Below, in pieces: positions 2,691-54,636 of a stretch of DNA of 64,000 nucleotides; position 1 is the first letter of the stretch, and every line of letters starts with the position of its first letter. This stretch comes from Dictyostelium discoideum (lineage: Eukaryota). The translations under genes and the position numbers were made by a program. Location: positions 352,001 to 416,000 of the forward strand of contig CM000151.3 of assembly GCA_000004695.1 (NCBI GenBank), in the 5' to 3' direction. The notes beneath the pieces are model-generated. The model worked only from the letters and a program-made list of their open reading frames with translations, searched no databases and was not told where the DNA came from.

Positions 2691-3092
2691 AATAAATATA
2701 ATTAATAATATTAAAAAAAAAAAAAAAAAACGAAATCAGGGAAGTTCCAAACAAAAAATCATATTTCTATTTTTTATTATTGTTTTTAATTCTTTACAAA
2801 CTATCATTTACTAATCGAAATTGATAGATTTGATTTCAATCGCTCCACTTGTGAATGTTGTTACTTACCTCGTGACGAAACTGTTGGACCAAACAGTAGA
2901 CATCATGATGCAATGGTAAATATCTTTGAAACATAATTAAAAACTAAATTATTTTTATCATATTGATTGATTATTATCATTATTATTATTTTTATAATTA
3001 ATTTTTAACCAATGTTCAAATGATTGATTATTATTTGAAATTGTTAATGATATAAAATTATACCACTTTTTTAAAACTAATATATTACATTT

Positions 3093-3134
<42 letters not shown>

Positions 3135-3406
3135 TGCACTTGATCAATATTTTTAATTTTTTTTTATTTCTTGCCCAGTTATTATTTAAAATAAAAAATT
3201 CATCTCGCTTGAGAAATACTATTTTTAATTTTTAATTTTTTCAAGTTACAACTGAAAAATTTAATTAAATTTGGCAATTTCTTATTTTTTAAGTTTTTGT
3301 CGCACTAAAAGAAGTTTTTTCATTTTTTTTTAAATTTTTTTTTAATTTTTTAATTTTTATTTGTTAATTTTTTCATTTTTTCTTTTTTGGACAGTATCAC
3401 ACAACA

Positions 3407-4592
3407 ATGAACAATAATATAGAGAATGATGATAGTATGGATGATGGTGAATTAGAGAAAAAGGATTTAAAATCAATTATAGAGATTGCTCAATCATATA
3501 GTATTTCAACAATTAGTTTAAATAAAGCAGAAATCATTGAAAAGATTAAATCAATAGTTAAAAGAAAAAGAGAATATGAAGAAGAACAAAAACAAAAACA
3601 AAATGTTAATTCATTTAATAAAATTAATAAATTAACAATTACAGATAATATTGAACCTACTGAAATATTATTTTGGAAATTATTTAGAAATATAGTAATT
3701 TATAAAAAGATATTCTCATTTATTGATAATCGATTCTCGTTAACATATGATTCAATGTCATCAATAAATAAATTAATTGATTCAAATCAATTTGGTATAA
3801 TAAAAGAAAAGGTTTATAGAAATTGTAGATATTTACTTTTGAATCCATTTACTATTACTTTAGAAATAGAATATTTATTGAAATTATTTTCAACAATTAA
3901 GAGTTGGTAAAATATTATTCAAATAAACTTGGTAATCACATACAAGCAAATGTTAACATATTATTACTTCCACCAACCTATTATATCGAATCAATAGAGA
4001 TGTTAGAATTTTTATTTTACAATCAATGTTATTACTTTAAAGATATTTTTTATAAGTTCAAAACGAAATTTATCATTACAGTAGAGTTGTGCATTTGAAA
4101 CAAAGTGATTTACAAAATCTGAATAATTCTTATTTCTTTTAAACATTTTGAATCATTATATCCACTGCTTTAGAATTATCATGTAAACATTCAATCAACT
4201 TTCAAACATTAAGAAATTTAGTAATTAATAGACATGCTTTTGTGAAGGAGCCAAATTATCAAACAGTATCTTATTCAAAAGAATTTTTAAAATTTATGGA
4301 TTGGATGTATACAAATTATAATAATGAATTGAAAAATGGTGGTTTCACTGAAGAAATACATCAATATCATTTACTCATTTCGATTGGTAGATTTGATTCC
4401 AACAACAACAATTACAACAACAACAACAACAACGACAGCATTAATAAATACTATAATGGTAACGAAGAAGAGAATGATGTTTATATTCAAAGATTACGAT
4501 TATTATTAAATAATGTTATCCAACTCACTCCTCATCTATTTGAAGTTAATAATTTTAAATTTTTAAATTGGTTATTAACATTCATTATTTAA
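3407..4592 (+). pseudogene. family paralog, internally deleted/fragmented
   Basis: The ATG at 3407 and the N-terminal 167 aa are colinear with paralogs, including the SAP-like motif and ILFWKLFRN. The remainder appears as three out-of-frame pieces (3904..4098, 4242..4592) with large internal deletions. Confidence 0.6.
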
Positions 4593-5521
4593 AAAGCAAA
4601 CATGGAGAACAAATCTTTTTTTTATTCATACTTCTTTTAATAATTTATTATATAATTTAATTATCTTGACAATATTTTCCACCCTGTGTTGTATCATATG
4701 ATTGTCCATTATTATTGCTATCATCAACCAATACACCATCATTTGAGGTTGAGTCACGATAACATTCCTCTATTTGGGTATTTTCTGATTCTTTGATTCT
4801 TTCAATGGTTTGTTGATCACGAGCATCTTGTCTGTTGGAAGAAGCATCTCTATTATTTGGATTACTATTGTTGGTTTCATCTCCTATTCCAAAGATATTT
4901 TGTACGACTTCAGCTCCCTTTTCAAAAACTACGTCTCTTACTAATAATAATTATTATTGTTAAGTTTAATAGTTAATAAATCTAATATTTAATGACTTGG
5001 AATTGAATATTTAATCCCATACTAATACATACTACCCATTTTTATTATTGATGATGATTTTATAGTTTAAATTATTTTGATAGAGGAATAAAATATATAT
5101 TTTTAATTTTAAATGATAAATTAATGAATGAATGTTTTTTTTTTATTTTTAATATTTTTTTTTTTTTTTATAAAATTAATAAAATAAATTTTCTTCGAAC
5201 TAATTATAATAATTAATTCAATTTTCATCACACAAAAGAAATTAACAGTTTGAAAATTTTCAAACGTCAAGTGTGGGTAAAATAAAAAAATACAAACAAG
5301 TAAAACAGATAAAAAAAAACTAACACTACTCAGGAGATATCTCCTGTGTTGTACAGTGTGTGGGGCGATGTTTTTTTTATTTATTTTTTTAATTAAAAAA
5401 AACTATTTGAATACCACAAAACTTAAAAATAAAGAAGCACTTGTGTGATGAATTTATCAGTTTTATGTTCAATTTTTTAGGGTATAAATAAAAATTGTAT
5501 TATGAAGAGTATTACATAAAT

Positions 5522-5567
<46 letters not shown>

Positions 5568-5786
5568 TAAAATTATTAATTAATTTAATTATTTATATAT
5601 TTGAAAAAAAAAACGATGTAATTTTTTAAAAAATTGGATGTTGAAATTGTTGAGGAAACGTTTTCATTGTGACTTATATAATTAGAAAAAAATACTTAGA
5701 TATAATAAAAAATTAAAAAAAAAAATTAAAAAAATATTCTATATTAAATAATAAATTTTTTTGTTATTTATTAATAATAAATTTTA

Positions 5787-5820
<34 letters not shown>

Positions 5821-6066
5821 TAAAAATTCATTTTTTAGAAAGTTATGAGTTTTATTTTGTAGTTCCGATAAAAAAAAAAAAAAAAACATTTGAGACCTGT
5901 CAATTATATTTGTTTTTATTTTTATAATTTATTTATTAAAGCACTAATAAATAAAAATAAAAATAAAATAAATAAAAAATAAAAATAAAATTAATAAAAA
6001 CACTTTTTTTTTTTTTCACATTTTCATTAATTTTTTTTTTTTTTTTTTGTAAGACAGTATTGCACA

Positions 6067-8898
6067 ATGAAAAATAATAATAAAAATAATAATAATAATA
6101 ATTTAGAAAATGAAAATGATATTGATGATAGTGAATTAGAAAAAAAGAGTTTAAAATCAATTAAAGAGATTGCTCAATCATATAGTATATCAACAACCAA
6201 TTTAAAAAAAGCAGAAATAATTGAAAAGATTAAATCAATAGTTAAAAGAAAAAGAGAATATGAAGAAGAACAAGAACAAAAAGAAAATGTTAATTCATTT
6301 AATAAAATTATTAAATTAACAATTACAGATAATATTGAACCCACTGAAATATTATTTTGGAAATTATTTAGAAATAAAGCAATTTATAAAAAGATATTCT
6401 CATTTATGGATAACCAATTCACAATAAGTTATGACTCAATAGATGATATATGTAAATTAGTAAATTCAAATCAAGTCAATTTAATAAGAGAAAAAGTTTA
6501 TAGAAATTGTAGATATTTACACTTCCATCCAAATCAGTATCATAACCATATTGCGGATATTCATTTTTTAGTGAAATTATTTTCAACAATTAAAGAAGAC
6601 GATTATAGATTCTATAGAAACTTTTTTAATGAAGAGAATGATTATTTTAGTTCACCAAATCATATAACACAAGCATCAATTATTTCAAAGAGATTACAAG
6701 TTTTTAAATTATTTGTAAATGAATTCAATTATGAACCAACAAAAAAAGATCTTCTATATTCAATTATTTCAGGTTCAAACAAATTCATTAAATATATATT
6801 AGAATTAAATTCACCAAATTCAGTTTTATTTGATAGAAAAATAGTTGATACTGATTTTAAAGATTTCTATGCTAAAGGATTTGGAAGTAATTATCCTACT
6901 AAAGAAGATAGTTTTTTCAAAGGGTTTTTATGTTTTTTAAATAACATTAACCTTGATGAAAATGATAGAGATCAATATTATAAGTTATTAATTGGTCAAT
7001 CCATTCATAACCCATATTCAGGTTATGGTTTTCAAATTAATGAAAAGTCAACATTAAAATCATTAATCACCACTGCTAGATTAATTTTAAAATTAAAAAC
7101 ACCATCCGCATCATACAAAGTACAATTTAAAGAAGAATGTTTCCCAAAAGTATTAAAAAAAATCGAAGCAGTCGCAACAATTGAAGAGATTGATAATTTC
7201 ATAAAGAAAATTGATAAAGTGAACTTAAAATCATTTTTAGATGATCCTATCAATTTTAATAATAGTGATGATAATAATGAAATTAAAAATTTTATAAAGA
7301 AATTATTAAAATTATATTATTTAAATTTTAGTATTGAACTATCAAATACTTTATACTTTTGTTATTATCATGAAGATTCCAATGATGATTATAAAGTTTT
7401 TCATTTTCATCATTTAATTGAAACTGCATTTAGATTTGGAAATTATGAAATTTTAGAATCATATGAAACAATCAATTGCCTACATTTTTTACCAGGAATT
7501 GGTCAAGATCATAGTAATCAAAATCACGATAGTCATCGTTATAAAGTTTTATTTTCACATTGTTTTAATAAAGGGAAAAAGATTAAATTCATTGATCACA
7601 TAATTCAAAGAACCATTCAACAACCAGAACCTGGATTTCAAATTTATTTCTTGTATATGCTTGTAATTCATAATAATATAGAGTTGGTAAAATATTATTC
7701 AAATAAAGTTGGTAAAAATATACAAGTAGAATCTATTGGAAGATTAACTCCACCAACCTATTATATCGAATCAATAGAGATGTTAGAATATTTATTTTAC
7801 AATCAATGTAATTACTTTAGAGATGTGTTTTTTGATGGCAAAAAAAGTACATTTTATAAAAATTTAGAATTATTAAAACATTTTGAATCATTATTAAATA
7901 AATCAAAATTAGGATGTGGTAGTGGTAATTGTAGTGGTATGCATTCTTATAATGGTCTTGTTAGCTTTATAAAAGGTATGGGCTTTGGAAGTGGTATATA
8001 TGGCTCTTTTGAGTATAAATCAAATAAGAATTATGTAGATTTTGCAAAACACTTTGCTTCAAATCCACAAATTTACAAGGGTTATACATTTGATTACGAG
8101 CATTTGTTTTTATTATTTACTACTCCTGTATCATCATCATCATCATTTTCATCTAAAATTTCAATTAACTTTGAAACTTTAAGAAATTTATTAATTAACG
8201 CATATTCTTTTGGAAGAAGCCCAATCTTTGAAAGATCAAAACCAACACACACACAACACCATTATTCAAGGGAATATTTAAAATTTTTTGATTGGATGTG
8301 TATAAATTATAGTCATGAAATTGGAGATCGAAGTTGTAGATTCTTGTATACAAATGAAGAAAGATATAAATACCATTTACTTATTGCAGTTGATAGAATA
8401 GATCTTGACAAAGATAATTATTATAATGGAGGTAATGATCAAGAGGAAGGAAATATTAGTGTTTATATTGAAAGATTGAATTCCTTAACATATGATGTCA
8501 TATATTTCACCCCATATTTATATGAAATTAATAATTTTAAATTTTTAAATTGGTTTTTAACAATCATTGAAAAGTATCACAATTCCAAATCAACATCATC
8601 TCATGATAAATCTATTATGGAGTCAATGGTTTTCACATTTATGGAATATATTACATTACATTCAAAATTACAAATACTTGAATACATTCATCATAATTTT
8701 CATTTCATTTTAAAGAAACAATCAGATGGTGGAATATTAAATATTGGAGAATTAAAATCTTTTATATTTTCATCACTTAAAAGAGATTCAATTAAAATTT
8801 CTAAATTCCTTTTTCAATTTATTACCATCACTAAAAATGAATTTGGTAAATATTCAAATGAAAAAACAAAATCATATTTTAAAAATATGTTTAAATAA
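6067..8898 (+). CDS. intact member of lineage-specific SAP-like-motif protein family (943 aa)
   Basis: True ATG at 6067. The single long ORF is colinear with the other paralogs: N-terminal LEKKSLKSIKEIAQSYSISTTNLKKAEIIEKIKS, KRKREYEEEQ, ITDNIEPTEILFWKLFRN, and the C-terminal block TPYLYEINNFKFLNWFLTII...GGILNI.ELKSF...FLFQFITITKNEF. The gene is intronless. Confidence 0.75.
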   Translation: MKNNNKNNNNNNLENENDIDDSELEKKSLKSIKEIAQSYSISTTNLKKAEIIEKIKSIVKRKREYEEEQEQKENVNSFNKIIKLTITDNIEPTEILFWKLFRNKAIYKKIFSFMDNQFTISYDSIDDICKLVNSNQVNLIREKVYRNCRYLHFHPNQYHNHIADIHFLVKLFSTIKEDDYRFYRNFFNEENDYFSSPNHITQASIISKRLQVFKLFVNEFNYEPTKKDLLYSIISGSNKFIKYILELNSPNSVLFDRKIVDTDFKDFYAKGFGSNYPTKEDSFFKGFLCFLNNINLDENDRDQYYKLLIGQSIHNPYSGYGFQINEKSTLKSLITTARLILKLKTPSASYKVQFKEECFPKVLKKIEAVATIEEIDNFIKKIDKVNLKSFLDDPINFNNSDDNNEIKNFIKKLLKLYYLNFSIELSNTLYFCYYHEDSNDDYKVFHFHHLIETAFRFGNYEILESYETINCLHFLPGIGQDHSNQNHDSHRYKVLFSHCFNKGKKIKFIDHIIQRTIQQPEPGFQIYFLYMLVIHNNIELVKYYSNKVGKNIQVESIGRLTPPTYYIESIEMLEYLFYNQCNYFRDVFFDGKKSTFYKNLELLKHFESLLNKSKLGCGSGNCSGMHSYNGLVSFIKGMGFGSGIYGSFEYKSNKNYVDFAKHFASNPQIYKGYTFDYEHLFLLFTTPVSSSSSFSSKISINFETLRNLLINAYSFGRSPIFERSKPTHTQHHYSREYLKFFDWMCINYSHEIGDRSCRFLYTNEERYKYHLLIAVDRIDLDKDNYYNGGNDQEEGNISVYIERLNSLTYDVIYFTPYLYEINNFKFLNWFLTIIEKYHNSKSTSSHDKSIMESMVFTFMEYITLHSKLQILEYIHHNFHFILKKQSDGGILNIGELKSFIFSSLKRDSIKISKFLFQFITITKNEFGKYSNEKTKSYFKNMFK

Positions 8899-29549: not shown

Positions 29550-30278
29550 TCATTCAAAGTATTCTTTGTGGAATCTGTGGTTGGCGTAATCTGCATTCAC
29601 TTCTTGATCTTTTTTGGCTGTCGGTGATAATTTTGGAGTTATTCTATTAATGAAATTGTTATTTTGCCTAATTCTTGTATGGTGCCAGTTTTTACCTTTG
29701 CCTGTGGTAATATAGATGAAATTTTTGAGTTTATTTATTTTTATGAATTGTTTTGTTTTCTTACATGAGAAGAACAGGTGGCCGTATGGGTCTTTGCTCA
29801 TATCTTCTTTGCAGAGTGGGCATTGTTTGTTGTGAAGGTAGTTTATTGGAAGGCATCTGGCATGGAATCTAAATATTGTGTCTCTTGTTTTAGGGTCTTT
29901 TATCTTCAGTATGTTGTTGAAGAGTTGATTATAGCTGTAGCCTCTTAAGTTTAGAGATGATTGGAATTCCGTTTTAGGGATGGTTGGATTTTGGTCTTGA
30001 ATTGTTGTATACCATTCTGCCAGTGAAAGTGGTTGTCCATTTTCGTTTTTTATGGATGTGAGATTATTGTTGAAGATTGCTTTTGTGATTCTTATTTTGT
30101 TCCATTCGTCTAAGTTTTCTTTTAGGTATCTGGATGTGAATTTGTTTTTTTGGATCTGATATTCCCAGCTTTTGTCATAGCTAAAAGTAGGGGGCTGGAA
30201 CATTTGGAATATAGAATTGAGACAACTGGCGCAGAAACTTTGGATCATAAACCAGTTCATCCTAGCACTAGAAACCAA
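29550..30278 (-). CDS. TRE3 ORF2 C-terminal continuation (CCHC zinc finger), separated from the main ORF by a stop or frameshift
   Basis: It contains FRFHARCLPINYLHNKQCPLCKEDMSKDPYGHLFFSC. In copy 2 the homologous region is contiguous with the upstream ORF, so copy 1 probably carries an inactivating mutation or a sequencing error near 30279-30296. Confidence 0.6.
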   Translation of the reverse strand: MVSSARMNWFMIQSFCASCLNSIFQMFQPPTFSYDKSWEYQIQKNKFTSRYLKENLDEWNKIRITKAIFNNNLTSIKNENGQPLSLAEWYTTIQDQNPTIPKTEFQSSLNLRGYSYNQLFNNILKIKDPKTRDTIFRFHARCLPINYLHNKQCPLCKEDMSKDPYGHLFFSCKKTKQFIKINKLKNFIYITTGKGKNWHHTRIRQNNNFINRITPKLSPTAKKDQEVNADYANHRFHKEYFE

Positions 30279-30296
30279 ACAAACAAACTCATCTCA

Positions 30297-32873
30297 TCAC
30301 AGAATAACTTGAAATCCACTAGCATTTTTGTTGTTTGGTGCCGATAAAAACCATTCGACTAATTTATTGATTTGGTTTAATTCCTCTTCCTTAAAGTTCT
30401 CTACATATGAATAGTAGGTTAATTTAGAGAGTGCGAATGCTTTGAGGATGTTGGTTTTGGTTTTGATTGTTGAGTCAGTGGTTTTCCATAGTACTAAGGA
30501 TGATCTTATTGTGTTTAATATTTCTGGCATTTTTCTTGTTATCCCTTTACCTGTGAAGAAGTATCCCAAGTATCTTTCTGGATTTGTAGATATTGGAATT
30601 CTTTGGTTGGTATTGTCTGGGTTGCCTATAAGAATTGATGAAGATTTGTCGATGTTTAGTTTTGAGGAAGTGGCTTTGCAAAATGAATTGAAGTGTTGTA
30701 GTACTAATTCAAGTTGTTGAGAGTCTGGGACCATTGAAGCCGAGTCGTCTGCAAAGCTTTGGAATTTCTCTCTGTGGTTGCTGTTGTTTAGAGGAAGGCC
30801 AGTAATTCGATCATCTTGTAAAATTTTTCTAGCTAAAGCCTCTATTACAAGGACGAACAGTGTGGGTGATAGTGGATCTCCTTGTTTAACTCCTCTTTTG
30901 ATCTCAAAGGGTATAGTAGTTCTACCATTAATTTCAATTCTTGCTTCAGATTTGGTGAGTAGATTCATTATCAGGTTGATTATATTGGTTGGAATGTTGA
31001 TGTGTTGTAGTGATCTAAGTATTGAACCGTGTGAGATCGAGTCAAAAGCTTTTTCGAAATCATATAGTGTAATTATTCCGTTAATTCTTTTATCATTACA
31101 ATAGTTGATTAATTCGTTCATTGATATGATATTATCTATAATGAATCTGCCTGGTACGAAACCTTTTTGATTGTGGTTGATCACTTTCGTTAGTATTGGG
31201 ATTATTCTATTGTTTATTAGCTTTGAGTGGATTTTATATATACAGTTAGCCAGTGTAATTGGTCTTCTGTTTTTGATTAGTTCGGGGTCTCCCTTTTTAG
31301 GTATCGTGATAATGAGGCCTTCTTTGTAATTTTTGCTAATTAGATGAGGATTTCTTAGAGTGTCGTTGAATGCTGAGGCCAGTATTGGAGCTAGTTTTTC
31401 TTTGTGTGTTATGTAGAATAAGTTTGGAATTCCATCTGGACCTGGAGATTTGTGTGGGTTCAGTTGTTTTATTACTTCTAGGATTTCTTGTGAGGTGAAT
31501 TCATTTTCAAGGTTGTCCCATGTTGAGTCCCTGGTCACTGTCCAATTTTCCAACATTTCGTAATGAGATAGTGGGTCATCTTCTTTGTAGTCATAAAGAT
31601 TTGAGTAATATTTTACGTATTCTTCTTCGATCAATTCCTGTTTGTTAATTGTTCTACCTTGTGCATCTTTTACTGCGTTGATGGTGAAATCATTGTGTCT
31701 TTTCTTGATTCTCGCGGAGATGTACTTGAGTGAGGTTTCTTCGCAATAGTTGTTCAATTCTTGTTTAAGTTGTTCTTCTCTTTTTTTAGATTCATTTATT
31801 GCTGAAAGGGTTGCGAAGGCTTGGTCTTTAAATTCTGTCTCTAGTAGGGAGATTAGATTTTTGATGTTTGCCTTATTGTTGTAGTCGTTTTGTTTTTGAA
31901 ATTCGGTGTATAGTTGTTTTATTTTGTTTAGTAAGCTGTTGAGTTGAGAGAAGGAAATAGAGTTATGGTTGGATGACAGCTCCCTTGAATAATCGTTAAG
32001 TAGGAAGTCTATTTTCTTAAGCATTATGCTTGAGAGGATTGAGGATTTTTTTAATCTCCATCTGCGCTTGTTCATCTGTATGTTGGGTAGAGTGAAAGTG
32101 GTTGATAGGAAGTTGTGATCTGATAGAGGTATGTCGTTAATTTTTGGGGGGATTAGGTTCCTTAAGTATAATTGGCTGTAGTTGATTAAGCTATTGTTAA
32201 GGTATATTCTGTCTAGTCTCCTTTCCAAGATTCTTGTGAGGTTATTGTTTGTGTTGTGTATCGTTCTTGAGAAGGTGGGTCTTTTATTTAGTTGGTCCAT
32301 ATCCATTAGGTTATTTGAAATTCTGATGGCTTCGATTACTGTGGCCATCTCATCTGGGGATTGTGTTGTCAGGTTGCCTTGGTCATCATTTGATGTGTGA
32401 TTGTCATTGAAGTCTAAACAGTTGAAGTCGCCTGCTATGATGTCGATGTTTTTATTAGGGTTAGACGTTAGGTTGTGGTATTGGTTGTTGAAGTGTTTAT
32501 TTAGTGTTGATGCTAGTGTTTTTCTTTTATCAGGTTGGGCCGGGGCGTATATGGCCAAGATTCTCGTTGTGGTATCTTTTATTAGAATGTCTGATATTAT
32601 TAGTCTACCTTCTATTATGAATATTGGTGAGAGTTTTATGTTTTGGTTGTTGTGGTTTAGTATTCCTATTCCGTTGCCTCTGTTGGTTGCGCTAATGATG
32701 GAGCCAGGAAATAGCTGGTGTGCTTGTGTTGCGTCGGCGTTGAGTTCATTGACTATGGTTAGTGCCAATGAGTTTGGGGGGGATTGGGATTTGATAAAGT
32801 CTGTTTTGTTTTTGAAGGAGGTGTCAGTACCCCAACCTCTGACATTCCATTGGTTGATTTTGATTACTACCAT
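30297..32873 (-). CDS. TRE3 ORF2 (endonuclease + reverse transcriptase), main part
   Basis: The 858-aa ORF begins MVVIKINQWNVRGWG (APE-type EN). RT motifs are ...PKKGDPELIKNRRPITLANCIYKI... and ...FADDSASM.... The minus-strand ATG at 32873 overlaps the end of ORF1. Confidence 0.8.
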   Translation of the reverse strand: MVVIKINQWNVRGWGTDTSFKNKTDFIKSQSPPNSLALTIVNELNADATQAHQLFPGSIISATNRGNGIGILNHNNQNIKLSPIFIIEGRLIISDILIKDTTTRILAIYAPAQPDKRKTLASTLNKHFNNQYHNLTSNPNKNIDIIAGDFNCLDFNDNHTSNDDQGNLTTQSPDEMATVIEAIRISNNLMDMDQLNKRPTFSRTIHNTNNNLTRILERRLDRIYLNNSLINYSQLYLRNLIPPKINDIPLSDHNFLSTTFTLPNIQMNKRRWRLKKSSILSSIMLKKIDFLLNDYSRELSSNHNSISFSQLNSLLNKIKQLYTEFQKQNDYNNKANIKNLISLLETEFKDQAFATLSAINESKKREEQLKQELNNYCEETSLKYISARIKKRHNDFTINAVKDAQGRTINKQELIEEEYVKYYSNLYDYKEDDPLSHYEMLENWTVTRDSTWDNLENEFTSQEILEVIKQLNPHKSPGPDGIPNLFYITHKEKLAPILASAFNDTLRNPHLISKNYKEGLIITIPKKGDPELIKNRRPITLANCIYKIHSKLINNRIIPILTKVINHNQKGFVPGRFIIDNIISMNELINYCNDKRINGIITLYDFEKAFDSISHGSILRSLQHINIPTNIINLIMNLLTKSEARIEINGRTTIPFEIKRGVKQGDPLSPTLFVLVIEALARKILQDDRITGLPLNNSNHREKFQSFADDSASMVPDSQQLELVLQHFNSFCKATSSKLNIDKSSSILIGNPDNTNQRIPISTNPERYLGYFFTGKGITRKMPEILNTIRSSLVLWKTTDSTIKTKTNILKAFALSKLTYYSYVENFKEEELNQINKLVEWFLSAPNNKNASGFQVIL

Positions 32874-34116
32874 TATGAGATGATATCGATCTCCTCTTGG
32901 GAGTCGTATAGCTGCGGTTTGGATGGTGAAGGGTAGATACTCTCTATGAAGCTCTCAATGATTCCTTTCCTTTCTTTATTGACAGGTGTCTTAGGGGTGG
33001 ATGGGATGTAAGGGTTGCTTCTGTTTATTGTTGGTGAGAGTTGGGTGACCTCGTTGTTTGAGTGGATTTCCTCGTTCTTGCGTTTATGTGATGGAGGGAT
33101 GTTTGGTGTCTTCTCTCTGTTTTCCGAGGATGAATGGATGTTAGTGCTCGTTTTGTTGGTATTGTCTTTTTGGATGGCGTTGGATGTTGTGGTAGTGGTT
33201 GTGGTGGGTTTGACAGATTGAGATTCTGCTTGGTTTTTGGGGGGAAGAGGTTGAGAGGACTTTTTTGATTGGGCTTTTTTCTCTTGGGTTGATTGTTTAT
33301 CAGACTGATTGTTTGCTGGGTCATTTGTTTGTTGTTGTGGTTTTGGTTGAGAGGATTTGATTGCTATCCTGTTTTGGGTGTTGGGAGGATCATCTGTCAT
33401 CTCATCTTCTAATGGTTCTTCCGTGTTGTTTGACTCTACTTTCTTATTTTTCTTTTGTGAGGAGTAGGTTTTGGTGGCCGTTCTGATGGTAAAGTTGGCG
33501 ATTTCTGTATTGTGTTGGCCAGATTTCATTTGATCGCCTATTTTGCATTCTATTAGACCGAATACTAGGAGGTGGTAGGTGGAGTATGTAGTATGGTATA
33601 TTGCATAGGGTATTTCTTCTGCAAAGGCAGTTTTGATGAGGGCGTCCACTATTCCTGCCTTTTCTTTTGGAATTCTTACTCTTCCTGTGAGGACGTGGTA
33701 GTCTCTACTGGAGGTGATGAAAGTTCCCAATTTGCTTCTATCTCTAATGATATTTAGGAGAGATTGTCGTTTTTAATCATCAGGTGTATCATTTTTCTAG
33801 TTCCTTTGCCTATGTATATCTTGTCGATTGGGATATCGTAGTTTGAGAGTGTTTTTCTCATTTCTTCTAACCCCATGAGATCCATTTTGGGGAATTCGAG
33901 TGTAATTGGGTAGAATCCGTTGTTTTTCTCGTAGGTTGAGAGCGCAGTCATGTTCAATATGGTCTCGCAGTATTTGGAGATGTCTTTGAGGCCTATTGAT
34001 AATTTGGGGTAGGTCTCCTTTATCTCTGCTGTTTTTGTGGAGAATTCCTTAATGAAGTTCTCTGATGCCTCGTCCATATGGGGGGCCATTTTAGCCGCGT
34101 CTGCGTAGGAATTCAT
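32873..34116 (-). CDS. TRE3 ORF1 (two frames: 33754..34116 and 32873..33730)
   Basis: ATG at 34116 starts MNSYADAAKMAPHMDEASENFIKEF... There is a frame change near 33730-33754, after which the basic, Thr/Gln/Pro-rich ORF1 continues to 32873. Confidence 0.55.
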
Positions 34117-34365
34117 CTCGATGGGATTCCTTTGAATCGGCGATTTGGTAAGTTAGATCTGTAGATCGTGGTGGATTGGTGATTTTTTTTGAAAGATTGG
34201 TTAAAATTGACCGAGATTAAGGATAGAAAAGGATGAATTACTTTTCACGTGTATCTTGTATCCTCTTGATCGCGGTACGGTTTTTTTTTCTCTTTTTATT
34301 GAAGTAACATTTTTCACGTGTATCTTGTATCCTCTTGATCGCGGTACGGTTTTTTTTTTAAGTTT

Positions 34366-34397
<32 letters not shown>

Positions 34398-34412
34398 CAG
34401 CAACTTAAAAAG

Positions 34413-34486
34413 TATTCAGAGCGGGAATCGAACCCACGACCTAATCCGTGTTAAGGATTCGTGATAACCGACTACACCATCCGAAC
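34413..34486 (-). tRNA. tRNA-Val (anticodon AAC)
   Basis: The minus-strand sequence is GTTCGGATGGTGTAGTCGGTTATCACGAATCCTTAACACGGATTAGGTCGTGGGTTCGATTCCCGCTCTGAATA. It forms a cloverleaf with a 7-bp acceptor stem (two G-U pairs), a TTAACAC anticodon loop (AAC), AGGTC in the variable region, and a GGGTTCGATTCCC T-arm. A T5 Pol III terminator follows immediately (CTTTTT). It closely resembles eukaryotic tRNA-Val(AAC). Confidence 0.85.
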
Positions 34487-34514
34487 TAATCTATAAAAAT
34501 TATTTTTAAACCGT

Positions 34515-34782
34515 TGTAATAAAGCTTGTTAGCTTTATAAATATATATAATTAATAATTATATAATTGAATAATACTTTGTTATCTTTATTTAATATTAA
34601 TTTATATTTATAATATTCAATATTGTTTATAAAATTATTCTTTAGTATTTATATTATTTATAATGAGTTGACAGTATTATTATTATTATTATTATTATAT
34701 TATTTAAATGTGTGTCAACTATAATTAGTAATGTAATATGCATATTTAATATCTATTAATTTTATAGAGTAACTTTATTACA
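34515..34782. repeat. 3' LTR (relative to the minus-strand element)
   Basis: Identical to 36887..37154. Confidence 0.85.
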
Positions 34783-35379
34783 TATCCCCCCCTTTTAGTT
34801 GAAAAAAATTTTTCAATCTTTTAATATAAAACACATCATGATTTTTAATATTATCCAATACTAATTTGAATTTTAAATCGCTAACTCTCTCATGTACTTT
34901 GAAAAGACCTTCCCAAGATTTATTGAGCTTTACTGGACCAACAGTGGATTGTAAATAGACATAATCTCCTACTTGAATATTTGAACGAGAAACTTTTTTA
35001 TTAATTTGTGATAATTGGTCTTTACCAAGATTATCCTTAATGAGACAAGGACGTTTGAGGTTATTATTTACAATTTGGGCGAAATTATGAGCAAAATCTA
35101 ATCTTGATAAATTTGTACATGGATTTCTTATTAATGGTTGAATTGAGGTTATTTGTGATTTAATTATTGAATTCTCTGTTTGATTTAATGATATTGATTT
35201 TAATGGTAAATTTGATGTTATTGGTGAATCTATTGGTTCTTGGAATAAGAATTCTGGAATATCGTAATCTATTGGTAGTTGTTCTTCAATAGTTGGATAC
35301 GATTTGATTGATAGTATATGATGAGAATTAAAATTTTCAATTAAATGATCAGTATCTGTTAATAATTCTGATTTTGATG

Positions 35380-35410
<31 letters not shown>

Positions 35411-36705
35411 TGAATAATCAGATACTGTTTTAAATATAGTTTGTATACATGGTTGGGTTTCTTTAGATATTAATTTGGTACCAACATTGAATTCAAGATT
35501 CTTAATGATCATTTCTTTAAAATCAATGACTAAATTTAATCCAATTATTGTATCAATGCCAAATATACAATCAATTGATGTATCATTATCTTTAACAACA
35601 TTAACTTTAACTCTAGCGAATGCTTTACCTAATTTAATTGTTGTGTTACTTATTCCAATGATTTTGATTTCATTATTTGATGCTGATTTAACAGAATATT
35701 GTTTATTTTCAATCTTTAATTTTAACTTTTTAGCAATACTTTCCCAAACAATAGTAAGTGATGAACCAGTATCAATCAAACCTCTAACATTTTTATTATT
35801 TATTAATAAAGCTGCATTCATACTATCTATTCCAATTGAATTAATTGTACTATTATTAACCATTGTAATTGCATTAGTGCTATGATTATTATATGATTGT
35901 TTATTCTCATTATAATTATTCTTTTTATCTTTAGACCAACACTCTTGAATTACATGACCTTTCTTTTTGCAATATTTACAAAATTTTGTGATTGAATTTA
36001 CTTGATTTTGTGGTGCTTTATAAGGGGATGATTGTGGTGACATTTGTGGTGATCGATTATAATATTGATTTTTAAAAATTGGTGTTGAAATTTCTTCAGA
36101 TTCAATTGATTGTTGTTCGTTTTGAGATGTAACATATTGAGGGGATGTTGCAGAATAACCAGAACCCGAACCTAGATATCTTTGATTACCAAATTCTTGC
36201 AACGTCTTTGCAACTAATTGACCAGTGTACATTGATCTACCTTTGATACGAATTGAACCATCTTCACAAGACTTTGCAATATCTATTGCTCTTTTTAATG
36301 ATTTTGGTGCACATTTTGTAATTTCAATACCCAATTCAGTACCAACAGCTGAATAAAACAATTGTATTTTAAACTTTTCTGAAATATCAACTGCTGAACA
36401 TTTTGATAGAAATTTACCAATTAATATATCTAATGTATTGTATTTATATTCTCCCAACTTTGTTAATTCTGTTAAATCATCACTATCACCAATATCAAAA
36501 GCATCTTTAAGATCTTCAATTATCTCCATTGCTGTTAAGTCTGTATCCAATGTTGCGGCATATTCCAATGCATTGTTTCTTAGTTTTCTAATAATATCAG
36601 CTTTCGATATTTCCTCGCCATGAATTAGTAAGAGTAAGTGTTTGAATTTACGAAATGATAAACCTTTTCCATCACCCGAAAAAATTACGTTTTCATTATT
36701 ACTCA

Positions 36706-36706
<1 letters not shown>
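34778..36706 (-). CDS. LTR-element polyprotein remnant: Gag (CCHC) - aspartic protease - integrase C-terminal region
   Basis: ATG at 36706. It contains the CCHC knuckle CKYCKKKGHVIQEC and the protease motif LIDTGSSLTIVW. The C-terminal ...VGDYVYLQ...KLNKSWEGLFKVHERVSDLKFKLVLDNIKNHDVFYIKRLK resembles the Ty3/gypsy integrase C-terminus (GPF/Y...VFHVS.LK). No RT, RNase H or IN core lies between them. Confidence 0.7.
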
Positions 36707-36776
<70 letters not shown>

Positions 36777-36886
36777 TATTAAATTAAATTTAATCTAATG
36801 TAAAATTTTAATTGATTGAATAATTTGATAACTTTATATTTATAGTATATTTTTTTTTTTTTTTTTTGAAAGACGATGTCGCCAAA

Positions 36887-37154
36887 TGTAATAAAGCTTG
36901 TTAGCTTTATAAATATATATAATTAATAATTATATAATTGAATAATACTTTGTTATCTTTATTTAATATTAATTTATATTTATAATATTCAATATTGTTT
37001 ATAAAATTATTCTTTAGTATTTATATTATTTATAATGAGTTGACAGTATTATTATTATTATTATTATTATATTATTTAAATGTGTGTCAACTATAATTAG
37101 TAATGTAATATGCATATTTAATATCTATTAATTTTATAGAGTAACTTTATTACA
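36887..37154. repeat. 5' LTR (relative to the minus-strand element)
   Basis: Identical to 34515..34782. Confidence 0.85.
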
Positions 37155-37412
37155 CCGTAATAATTATTAAAAATAGTTTAAAAGAATCATCCAAGTTGGC
37201 ACTTTTTTGTAATTACAAAAATTATATATGGGGACTCATATAAAATAATATGAACAATTTTGAAAAGTGCACTTAGATAGTTTTTATAATAACTAAATTT
37301 TTTTTTTTTTTTTTTGAGATATTTCATTATTTCCGAAATAATTTTTAAAATAAATTTTTTTTTTTTTTTTTCTTTTTTAAAAAAAAAACAATGGATAGAG
37401 ATAAAAATTATA

Positions 37413-40448
<3,036 letters not shown>

Positions 40449-41192: not shown

Positions 41193-44354
<3,162 letters not shown>

Positions 44355-44913: not shown

Positions 44914-47967
<3,054 letters not shown>

Positions 47968-51903: not shown

Positions 51904-51934
51904 ATGAGTAACAACAGTAATAGTAATAATAGTA

Positions 51935-51991
<57 letters not shown>

Positions 51992-54636
51992 TAGTAATAA
52001 ATGAGGATGAAGATGGCAATGAATTAGAGAAAAAGGATTTAAAATCAGTTAAAGAGATTGCTCAATCATATGGTCTATCAACAAACAAATTAAATAAATT
52101 AGAAATCATTGAAAAGATTAAATCAGTTAAAAGAAAAAGAGATTATGAAGAAAAAGAAAATGTTAATTCGTTTAATAAAATTATTAAATTAACAATTACA
52201 GATAATATTGAACCTTCTGAAATACTATTTTGGAAATTATTTAGAAACATAGTAATTTATAAAAAGATATTCTCGTTTATGGATAAACGATTCTCAATTA
52301 ATTATGATTCAATGTCATCAATATCAAATCTTATAAACAATAATCAATTCAATATATTAAAAGAAAAAGTTTATAGAAATTGTAGATATTTACATTTAAC
52401 AACTCACGATTTGTATGATAAAATTAATGATATTTCTTGTTTGGTGAAACTATTTTCAAATATTAAAGATGACTATCAATTCTATAGAAACTTTTTTAAT
52501 AGTGATAATGGTCGTTATCTTTTAGCGACAAACATATCAACAGCATTAATTATATCAAAGAATTTAGAGATTTATAAATTATATATAACTGAATTCAATT
52601 ATGAGCCAACAGAAACAGATCTTATTTATTCAATTATAATAGGTTCACAAAAATTCATTAAATATATATTAGAATTAAATTCATCAAAATCATCGAAATC
52701 ACCATTTTATAATATTAATATTCAAAAATTTTATTTAAATGAATCATCATATTTTAATTTTCAAAAAGATAAAATATTTAAAGGATTACTATTTTATTTA
52801 AATAATAATAGTAAACAAGTATTTACAATAGATAATCTTTATGAATTTATTATTTATAGAAACGATAATGGATATGAAATTAATGAAAAATCAACATTAA
52901 AAACATTAATCACAATTTGTAAATTAATTTTAAAATTATATCCATCACCAACTATTGAAACAAAAACAAGCGAATTATTTAAATCGGTTCCAGATATTCA
53001 AGAAATTAATGGTTTTATTATTGAAAAAATGATTGATAAACAAATTTTAAAATCAAAATTAGATAATCCAATTTATTATAATAATAATAATAATAATAAC
53101 ATTGAAATTAAAAAGTTTATAATTAAATTATTAAATTTATATTATAAAACATTTATATATATACCAACAATTTTATATTTATGTTATTATGATTATGATG
53201 ATAATGAAAATTATCATTACTATTTCAAGCAATTTAATACTGACAAGGATGAACTGGAAATTGCATTTAGATTTGGAGATTTTAAAATTTTAGAACCTCG
53301 TGAAACTATTGATTATAAGAATATTTTACCAAGAGAATATAATTTCTGGGAAAAAGAGAATCATATAGTTTTATTCTCACATTGTTTTAATAAAGAGAAA
53401 AAGATTAAATTCATTGATCAATTGATTGAAAGAAATAATCAAAAGCCAGAATTGAATTTCGAAAATATTGTCTTCAATATGATTGTAATGAATGATGATA
53501 TTGAATTATTAAAATACTTTTCAAATAAAATTGGTTCAATTCTACCAGTCTATATTAATATTTCTGATTTTTCAATTTCTCCAACCTTTTTAATAGAATC
53601 AATTGAAATGTTGGACTATTTATTTAACAATCATAGAAAATACTTTATTGATAGAGAACTTATAAATAATTATAGTACATTTTTTAAAAATGTACAATTA
53701 TTACAACACTTTGAATCGTTATTATCAAAATTTAAACTTGACAATCCGTCGATCATTGAAAAGGATCCAATTCCTTTTATAAAAACTATAGATTTTAGTA
53801 GTATTTTATATTATAAAAAATACAAAGACTTTCTTAATTTTGCAAAACACTTTGCTACAAATTCACTATACAATAATGATGAATTAGATCGTATACAATT
53901 ATTAATATTATTAACTGATGCTGAATTATCATCTAAACAAATGGTCAACACAGAAACACTTGGAAATTTATTAATTTTTCCACACCACAAATCAAATCTA
54001 ATAGATCAAAGATCAAATAAACCATATTCAAAAGAATTTTTAAAATTAATTGAATGGTTATTTAATAACTACAATCATTTAATTGAAAAGGGTGGTCATC
54101 TATATCACAATAAAAAACACCATTACCATCTTCTTATTACACTAGATAGATTAGATCTCAACAACAACAACAACTATTGTTATAATAATATTGAAAAAAT
54201 TACTTACCTAATGGATATAGTAAATAATTCAACACCATTTTTATATGAAGCCAATAATTTTAAATTTTTAAATTGGTTTTTAACAATGATTGAAGATTAT
54301 CATTTTTCATCCAATTCAACAAATAATGATGAAAAATTAAAAATTAAAGCTTTAACAAAATCATTTCTTAACTATATTGTAGGCAATTCAAAATTACAAA
54401 TACTTGAATATGTTCATCAAAACTTTGGTTTCATTTTAAAAAAAGATTCAAATGGTGGAATATTACCAATTAAAGAATTAAAAGAATTCTTAATTTTATC
54501 AATTGGTTCATATTCAAATTTTAGTTCAATTAAAATTTCAGAATTTCTTTTTCAATTTATTACAATATCAAAAAGTGAATTTGAAAAGAAATCAAATAGA
54601 ATATCAAAACTAATCTTTGCAAATAAATTTAATTAA
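51904..54636 (+). CDS. intact family paralog (910 aa)
   Basis: ATG at 51904 starts MSNNSNSNNSSNNNN..., followed by the SAP-like motif and conserved blocks. It is the shortest intact member. Confidence 0.75.

Follow-up and report, generated by a model that had tools for sequence, protein, structure and literature searches.

How can a long terminal repeat (LTR) retrotransposon that encodes no polymerase come to lie upstream of a tRNA gene, with an intact open reading frame (ORF) in its interior and two identical LTRs? The question is raised by a locus in a 64-kb stretch of AT-rich DNA from Dictyostelium discoideum (contig CM000151.3, positions 352,001 to 416,000), called the window below. In this locus an earlier note, made from the letters of the DNA, had described a 642-amino-acid (aa) ORF in which Gag and a protease (PR) are fused to the C-terminus of an integrase (IN). 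The answer proposed here is that the element very probably belongs to a non-autonomous subfamily, old and amplified, of DGLT-A, a Ty3/gypsy retrotransposon, and that it was moved by the enzymes of its full-length relatives. The whole element is 2640 bp long and is read on the minus strand. Its parts and the neighboring tRNA gene are as follows.

37155-37158, minus strand: target-site duplication ACGG (4 bp), upstream copy
36887-37154, minus strand: 5′ LTR, 268 bp, with TG...CA ends, a perfect direct repeat of 34515-34782 (268/268)
36868-36884, minus strand: primer-binding site (PBS) TGGCGACATCGTCTTTC, 2 nt past the 5′ LTR
34778-36706, minus strand: single ORF of 642 aa with an ATG start, comprising Gag, PR, a linker and the IN C-terminal domain (translation)
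34783-34796, minus strand: polypurine tract (PPT) AAAAGGGGGGGATA, adjoining the 3′ LTR and kept in short and full-length copies
34515-34782, minus strand: 3′ LTR, 268 bp, the first 5 nt of which (TGTAA) hold the stop codon TAA of the ORF
34511-34514, minus strand: target-site duplication ACGG (4 bp), downstream copy
34412-34486, minus strand: tRNA-Val(AAC), the integration target (ARAGORN), its 5′ end 28 bp from the 3′ LTR and in the same orientation

Read on the minus strand, both LTRs open with TGTAATAAAG (TGTAAT) and close with TTATTACA (TTACA). The pair of identical LTRs around the ORF and the intact PBS and PPT, all claimed in the earlier note, were found as described; a perfect 268-bp repeat together with a 642-codon ORF is far beyond chance here. 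In string and in position, the PBS is an exact match to the published PBS of D. discoideum DGLT-A (PMC5006619). The tRNA-Val(AAC) gene is the sole tRNA gene that ARAGORN detects in the 64-kb window, and the published range of DGLT-A integration sites spans 13-33 bp ahead of tRNA genes (PMC5006619). Since the distance of 28 bp lies within this range and the PBS is identical, the element is assigned to the DGLT-A family. The PBS core TGGCGACATCG is kept in the window copy, in four further short copies (L001, L003, L004 and L005) and in the autonomous copy L006, including lineages that are only 76% identical overall. No tRNA or other D. discoideum genomic sequence complementary to the DGLT-A PBS is known (PMC5006619).

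Within the ORF, the following parts can be distinguished.

35837-36706, minus strand: Gag region, aa 1-290 (similarity to the DGLT-A polyprotein)
35939-35980, minus strand: Gag zinc knuckle CX2CX4HX4C, CKYCKKKGHVIQEC, aa 243-256 (seen in the translation)
35552-35806, minus strand: retropepsin-type aspartic protease, aa 301-385 (Pfam)
35762-35773, minus strand: protease active site DTGS, aa 312-315, within LIDTGSS at aa 310-316 (translation)
35117-35434, minus strand: degenerate linker, aa ~425-530 (BLASTP and DNA blocks)
34781-35116, minus strand: remnant of the IN C-terminal domain (GPY/F, SH3-like), aa 531-642 (alignment to DGLT-A)

The Gag CCHC knuckle and the DTGS protease that had been noticed by eye are both confirmed, the protease exceeding the Pfam cutoffs of Asp_protease_2 (E 8.4e-11) and gag-asp_proteas (E 9.7e-10). 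The in-frame fusion of Gag-PR to an integrase C-terminus also stands, and the string VGDYVYL...WEGLFKV...VFYIKRLK is present near the C-terminus of the ORF. The fusion is not direct as had been supposed, a linker of about 105-110 aa being located between the protease and the IN tail. In order, the linker consists of a stretch left from the first ~40 aa of the reverse transcriptase (RT), a first junction (junction 1), the tail of the ribonuclease H (RNaseH) with part of the RNaseH-IN spacer, and a second junction (junction 2). The peptide SNIQVGDYVYLQSTVGPVK belongs to the linker/tail portion. The 642-aa ORF is identical to the AX4 gene DDB_G0271456 (P0148), which is annotated there as 'hypothetical protein / Peptidase A2 domain-containing'.

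What, then, has been lost relative to a complete element? The DGLT-A consensus is 5054 bp long, with 265-bp LTRs and a single Gag-Pol ORF of 1437 aa without a frameshift (PMC5006619, PMC6101501). A HMMER search with the window ORF over 1.84 billion representatives led to a 1423-aa full-length relative, P0006. The published 1437-aa polyprotein itself (P0157, UniRef Q9GQ51), which was recovered by a second search with a pol segment as query, served as the reference for block mapping. BLASTP aligns the window ORF with P0157 in three collinear blocks: aa 1-457 with residues 1-465 (85% identity, the first 283 aa of the ORF being nearly identical to the polyprotein), aa 474-512 with 885-927 (50% identity), and aa 531-635 with 1323-1436 (50% identity, E 9e-25). 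The spacer remnant of the linker as a whole, aa 466-512, corresponds to DGLT-A residues ~879-927. P0006 gives the same three collinear blocks, and at the DNA level positions 1651-1815, 1856-2021 and 2012-2100 of the element match positions 4170-4360, 5613-5778 and 6997-7084, respectively, of L006 (5055 bp). In P0006, Pfam recognizes PR (290-375), RVT_1 (475-632), RT_RNaseH (695-818), Integrase_H2C2 (1062-1121), rve (1138-1234) and SH3_Tf2-1/Integrase_p58_C (1362-1420); RVT_1, RT_RNaseH, Integrase_H2C2 and rve have no match in the window ORF.

Judged from these alignments, the short element appears to derive from a full-length ancestor, about 5.05 kb long, by two internal deletions of ~1.2 kb each. 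Residues ~466-878 and ~928-1322 of the DGLT-A polyprotein are missing. The first deletion took the RT core and RNaseH, and the second most of the RNaseH-IN spacer, the zinc-finger/N-terminal domain of IN and its DDE catalytic core. The LTRs, PBS, PPT, Gag, PR, the first ~40 residues past PR, the RNaseH tail with the start of the spacer, and the IN C-terminal domain (CTD) are kept; the retained tail matches almost exactly the IN-CTD as delimited by Kling et al. (1314-1437; PMC6101501). A six-frame tblastn of the full-length DGLT-A polyprotein against the 64-kb window detected no RT, RNaseH or IN core and matched only Gag-PR (36706-35435) and the IN tail (35116-34802), and the other five frames of the element are crowded with stops. 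Hence the claim that no polymerase is present, in this frame or another, was borne out. The loss of the RT/RNaseH/IN core as one piece was not: a single deletion joining PR straight to the IN tail is ruled out by the three collinear blocks, which correspond to two deletions.

The same short structure is present at five loci, namely the window copy, L001, L003, L004 and L005, with lengths of 2594-2671 bp. The siblings were found through protein searches, so that the sample is biased to intact ORFs; homologous proteins with the same architecture are 612-642 aa long. The window copy is collinear over its full length with L001 (97%) and L003 (92%), and its DNA identity to L004 and L005 is 76%, a value that leaves out the unaligned, most diverged middle part. 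The four siblings are positioned 12-14 bp from distinct tRNA genes (Ile-AAU, Leu-UAA, Leu-CAA and Leu-AAG), are flanked by 4-bp target duplications that are all distinct (TTTC, CTAA, TCCG and CATA), and carry intact ORFs of 632-636 aa. The two LTRs are 100% identical in the window copy, L001 and L003, and 98.5-98.9% identical in L004 and L005. Because tRNA gene and 4-bp duplication differ from copy to copy, the copies are taken to be independent, integrase-made insertions of the short form. The earlier note had proposed that further copies of the same structure would indicate an amplified non-autonomous subfamily, and five loci at five tRNA genes with five distinct duplications bear this out.

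In AX4 there are at least five short-form gene models, assigned by cluster membership: DDB_G0271456, DDB_G0279931, DDB_G0277283, DDB_G0276009, which is frameshifted in the tail, and DDB_G0287455, which is partial. Others occur in further isolates. Twenty DGLT-A insertions have been reported for AX4, with nine non-solo copies remaining and none of full length (PMC5006619); the number of solo LTRs is eleven in the text of that paper and five in its Table 1. By the gene models listed above, short forms thus account for at least five of these nine copies. P0005 (D. dimigraforme, 414 aa) and P0007 (277 aa) are two further DGLT-A relatives among gene models; they comprise Gag-PR only or Gag only and could be additional non-autonomous forms or fragments.

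How would such a copy move? The following steps are taken from standard LTR-retrotransposon biology. The 5′ LTR would drive a genomic RNA of the short element, which would be translated into a Gag-PR-linker-IN tail protein; the protease would free Gag, and Gag would assemble into particles. RT/RNaseH and integrase would be supplied in trans by an autonomous DGLT-A with the same PBS, PPT and LTR ends. RNaseH and the IN N-terminal domain (NTD) of this helper would tether the preintegration complex to the TFIIIC subunit Tfc4, and such tethering would direct insertions, each with a 4-bp duplication, to sites 12-28 bp ahead of tRNA genes. What is seen at the short copies agrees with ordinary DGLT-A integration: they lie 12-28 bp upstream of tRNA genes, in either orientation, and are flanked by duplications of 4 bp. 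Since the short copies possess the PBS, PPT and LTR ends of the family and lack the RT/RNaseH/IN core, we propose that they were reverse transcribed and integrated by the enzymes of autonomous DGLT-A.

Related genomes do contain full-length copies, with polyproteins of 1421-1455 aa and the same PBS core and PPT. L006, from 'D. cf. discoideum', is a 5055-bp element that encodes a 1423-aa polyprotein; its PBS core and PPT agree with those of the window copy, and its LTRs share 87% identity with the LTR of that copy. At 2406-7659 of L006 the ORF lies in two frames at the PR/RT boundary (2989-4263 and 4188-7367), the gene model spanning the frameshift by an intron, and an inverted partial LTR adjoins the 5′ LTR. 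No tRNA gene was found near L006 in the 10-kb locus, which extends about 2.6 kb beyond each end of the element. AX4 is reported to be without a full-length DGLT-A (PMC5006619, PMC5633606), and its copies have been treated as 'not full-length' and the family inferred to be dead (PMC5006619). Because no intact helper is reported, the short forms of AX4 are probably now stranded.

Why should the tail of an integrase be retained when the rest of the enzyme is gone? That it is an integrase tail, as the earlier note had it, is well supported. Besides its match to P0157, it aligns to residues 1309-1422 of P0006, downstream of rve, and a six-sequence profile of the tail matches residues 1349-1445 of the Ty3 integrase (PDB 7q5b) with E 7e-9. 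In the whole ORF, Pfam places a sub-threshold Tf2-type integrase SH3 match at aa 593-634; on the tail segment, SH3_Tf2-1 scores 23.1 bits against a cutoff of 30 (E 8.3e-5), and in the sibling short form P0153 Integrase_p58_C reaches 27.5 bits against a cutoff of 27. The AlphaFold2 model of the tail has four strands and a mean predicted local confidence (pLDDT) of 52. Foldseek with this low-confidence model gave no match in the PDB at E ≤ 0.001, and only weak ones (E about 0.1-0.3) to Tudor/SH3-type folds and to PFV or Ty3 integrase.

The tail shows several signs of decay. The GPF motif reads W-E-G-L-F in the window copy and W-A-D-P-I in the L004 type; G-P-F/Y is kept in the sibling L003 and in every dictyostelid element in the accessible part of the published Fig. 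S1 alignment. The window-type tail is without five residues (HTPYS), and an A7T4-to-A5T7 change just before the original stop adds six further codons by read-through into the LTR. The tail of L003 is 100% identical to the published consensus. Autonomous tails are 91-96% identical among themselves, the window-type tail is 51-55% identical to them, and the window-type and L004-type tails are 39% identical to each other.

It had been suggested that a Gag-PR-IN(C) protein might retain a targeting or chromatin-binding function. In two-hybrid and pull-down experiments, Tfc4 binding lies in RNaseH and the IN N-terminal domain, with none by the catalytic or C-terminal domains of IN (PMC6101501). DGLT-A is moreover defined as lacking a chromodomain (PMC5006619), and no Pfam chromo match was found in the ORF at E ≤ 1. 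Because Tfc4 binding resides elsewhere and there is no chromodomain, such a role of the retained tail is unlikely; the change of GPF to GLF, the 5-aa deletion and the relaxed constraint described below speak against the suggestion as well. As a part of an integrase, the tail is probably not needed.

P0160 (ACTFIR) and P0159 (D. citrinum) represent a second, far-diverged family that resembles DGLT-A and has proteins of about 1356-1360 aa. It is about 40% identical to DGLT-A in Gag-PR and 56-59% identical in the IN tail, the tail being the best-conserved part between the two families, and it coexists with L004-type short forms in one isolate.

Selection on the different parts was estimated between lineages as the ratio of nonsynonymous to synonymous divergence (dN/dS) by the Nei-Gojobori method, with bootstrapping for the tail. 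The ratio is 0.18-0.23 for Gag and 0.22-0.24 for PR. It is about 1.4 for the linker, the alignment of which between lineages is uncertain, and 0.45-0.55 for the IN tail, with bootstrap intervals from about 0.2 to 0.92-1.14; between autonomous-type tails (L003 and L006) it is 0.24. Strong purifying selection on the IN tail was considered and rejected, since its dN/dS is about 0.5, the upper bound comes close to 1, and it has diverged to a much greater extent than the tails of autonomous copies. No stops have been acquired, against about 18.5 stop-creating substitutions expected from the divergence in the linker and 7.1 in the tail. All indel events (six in the linker and three in the tail) are in frame, and the two off-frames of the last 216 codons contain 19 and 30 stops. 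On these estimates, Gag-PR appears strongly constrained, the linker sequence unconstrained and the tail sequence weakly constrained, with the whole frame clearly selected to stay open. A weak role of the tail as protein, a cis-acting RNA function of the 3′ region, or the avoidance of a long 3′ untranslated region may account for the open frame. Between the window copy and L003, dS is 0.02 in PR and linker, and in the IN tail dS is about 0.6 and dN about 0.3; this difference in dS indicates that the lineages are mosaics produced by recombination.

These observations raise the question of whether the short form is a parasite of the full-length element or its partner. One could suppose that the short form has been kept because it supplies extra Gag-PR, and that its tail docks the protein or its RNA into the particle or intasome of the helper. 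In Drosophila, extra Gag-PR of copia is supplied by a spliced gag-protease RNA. The single Gag-Pol ORF of DGLT-A, without a frameshift, gives a Gag:Pol ratio of 1:1, and Gag and PR are under purifying selection in long-diverged lineages. Moreover, the frame through linker and tail is kept open against expectation, and the tail dN/dS is marginally below 1. However, a parasite that needs its own particles equally predicts purifying selection on Gag-PR. The short-form tail has drifted far from autonomous tails that remain very similar to one another, GPF has been lost independently (the window type has GLF, the L004 type DPI), and AX4 keeps short forms without a helper. Cooperation of this kind is therefore quite unlikely. 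A broader form of the idea, in which the short DGLT-A is a long-lived, selected partner that provides extra Gag-PR, has a tail coupling protein or RNA to the helper, and in AX4 outlived the helper and may have helped to extinguish it, is likewise unlikely.

The next question concerns how often the short form arose. It could have done so repeatedly at a deletion hotspot, for example the repeats of the spacer, rather than once as an old lineage. The spacer between RNaseH and IN is indeed repetitive (TIQP-type repeats), with the microhomology TC(C/A)AAT at junction 2; the junction 1 region varies between lineages; and in its Gag-PR the L004 type comes nearest (79%) to another full-length subfamily, P0158. 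Against these points, junction 2 (..IQPxxxxP./NSLxLDF, with a slash marking the joint here and below) places the beginning of the IN tail at one and the same residue in every lineage, and the ~35 residues ahead of it can be aligned across the window and L004 types, which are 76% identical in DNA. Since junction 2 and the ~35 upstream residues are common to lineages so far apart, the deletion is taken to have arisen once and then spread, and the recurrence that the earlier note had considered is not borne out. The window copy, L001 and L003 are furthermore collinear at 92-97% identity, and the mosaic pattern of dS allows recombination to explain why some segments resemble different full-length subfamilies. 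Repeated origin is thus distinctly improbable, and a single old subfamily remains the preferred reading.

As to the deletions themselves, junction 1 is contiguous in the genomic DNA of L008 ('Dictyostelium cf. discoideum'; 5′-truncated and decayed), a point that also speaks for a single origin; there (..YPSDKEF/DVLCNALS..) the N-terminus of RT is followed directly by the ADALSR end of RNaseH. Additional in-frame losses around this junction are assumed for the window and L004 lineages. At the position of junction 2, L006 has the donor CCA TCC AAT/GTT and the acceptor TAT TCA AAT/TCA, with TC(C/A)AAT in common. An origin from a spliced subgenomic RNA was rejected: L006 has no AG at the junction 2 acceptor and has this microhomology instead, a combination that points to illegitimate recombination or template switching rather than splicing. 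The deletions thus probably came about by one of these two processes at short homologies, a reading that is tentative for junction 2, L006 being different from the actual ancestor.

It may also be asked whether the window copy is simply a dead relic, a full-length DGLT-A that inserted here, lost its middle locally and never moved as a short form. Internal deletions are frequent in LTR elements, and the nine non-solo copies of AX4 have been described simply as not full-length (PMC5006619). This is nevertheless very improbable: the same 2.6-kb structure occurs at four further loci, each with a tRNA gene and a 4-bp duplication of its own, the LTRs of the window copy are identical, and junction 2 is common to a lineage 76% identical in DNA. 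A domesticated host gene, a co-opted Gag-protease gene like Ddi1 or the PEG10/Arc-type genes, would agree with the AX4 annotation as a hypothetical 'Peptidase A2 domain-containing protein', the intact ORF and the purifying selection on Gag-PR, but can practically be dismissed, given multiple copies at different tRNA genes, each with LTRs, PBS, PPT and target duplication, some of them frameshifted or truncated (DDB_G0276009, P0154 and L008), and no evident single conserved syntenic locus.

An old non-autonomous subfamily moved in trans is hence the reading we retain, and several points that weigh against it should be set beside it. The case for mobilization in trans is drawn from genomic footprints only, and AX4, reported to have no full-length DGLT-A, offers no apparent source of RT and IN for its copies with identical LTRs. 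Identical LTRs mean little change since insertion and are no proof of recent activity if the mutation rate is low, as it is in Dictyostelium. Of the recent mobilization in trans that the earlier note had suggested, movement in trans is thus supported by the footprints at five tRNA loci, and its recency is not. The junction 1 region differs between lineages, and secondary deletions there are assumed. The tail dN/dS comes from ~95 codons and has wide intervals, and part of the tail divergence may predate recombination, having been gained in other elements. Finally, finding copies by protein search favors intact ORFs, which bears on the reading of the open frame.

A non-LTR retrotransposon of the TRE3 kind (29550-34116, minus strand) is located downstream of the same tRNA-Val gene, with ORF1-like frames at 34116-33754 and 33730-32873 and an 858-aa ORF2 at 32873-30297 that has a weak endonuclease match and an RVT_1 match (E 4.9e-34). 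The tRNA-Val gene is thereby flanked by DGLT-A upstream and TRE downstream, an arrangement typical of D. discoideum. Between the tRNA gene and the TRE ORF1 there is a perfect 48-nt direct repeat (34242-34289 and 34311-34358), and a run of 33 A on the minus strand (34365-34397) directly follows the tRNA; repeat and A-run may be a duplication of a TRE 5′-untranslated-region module or the leftover of an earlier insertion. The whole DGLT-A/tRNA/TRE island is situated inside a cluster of five paralogous plus-strand ORFs of 910-1053 aa (6067-8898, 37314-40448, 41193-44354, 44914-47967 and 51904-54636). These are 41-59% identical to one another, and Pfam gives a single hint, a Rho_N/SAP-like motif below threshold close to the N-terminus of the ORF at 37314.

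DGLT-A is the amoeba counterpart of yeast Ty3 for studies of tRNA-gene targeting. An internally deleted LTR element mobilized in trans is of a well-known kind and not surprising in principle. What changes is the picture of the family: at least five of the nine non-solo copies of AX4 belong to one structured non-autonomous subfamily with intact ORFs and identical LTRs, of which a diverged sister lineage is present in other isolates. About five AX4 genes annotated as 'hypothetical Peptidase A2' gain a clear annotation. With LTRs, PBS, PPT and Gag-PR in 2.6 kb, the short element also offers a naturally minimal DGLT-A vector for complementation experiments on which parts of Pol are needed in trans. 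In the accessible literature, which does not include the original account (Glockner et al. 2001), no description was found of the partial AX4 copies as one conserved subfamily of Gag, PR and IN C-terminus; prior notice of the short form in that account is possible.

Finally, the element can be compared with known systems. It resembles DGLT-A in its LTRs of about 265-268 bp with TG..CA ends, in having the same PBS 2 nt past the left LTR and a PPT at the right LTR, in its insertion 13-33 bp upstream of a tRNA gene, in a Gag-PR that is 85% identical, and in a homologous IN C-terminal domain. It differs in its size (2640 versus 5054 bp), in lacking the autonomous Gag-PR-RT-RNaseH-IN ORF, and in an IN tail that is 50% identical, with GLF for GPF, a 5-aa deletion and read-through into the LTR. 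Plant TR-GAG elements and the GAG/PROT families with decayed POL similarly possess LTRs and a gag (protease) ORF without RT and IN (PMC13570524, PMC8704663). Like the window element, they have formed subfamilies and have sequence in common with an autonomous partner, and they have been termed 'semi-autonomous' (PMC13570524, PMC8704663). In contrast to these plant elements, the window element is amoebozoan and tRNA-gene-targeted, its partner is a single-ORF Gag-Pol element, and its ORF continues without a stop across a junk linker and on into the C-terminal domain of an integrase. In D. purpureum, about 30 copies each are listed for Dp_DGLT-A.4 and Dp_DGLT-A.5, none of them full-length (Table 1, PMC5006619); compared by description only, they are reported without ORFs (PMC5006619), whereas the window element has an intact 642-aa ORF. 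Ty3 of S. cerevisiae shares the Ty3/gypsy lineage and a homologous IN C-terminal module with the window element and inserts about 15 bp upstream of tRNA genes, but it is autonomous and has a +1 frameshift between GAG3 and POL3. The two systems also reach their targets differently: Ty3 is directed by contacts between IN and TFIIIB, and DGLT-A by the binding of RNaseH and the IN-NTD to Tfc4 (PMC6101501).

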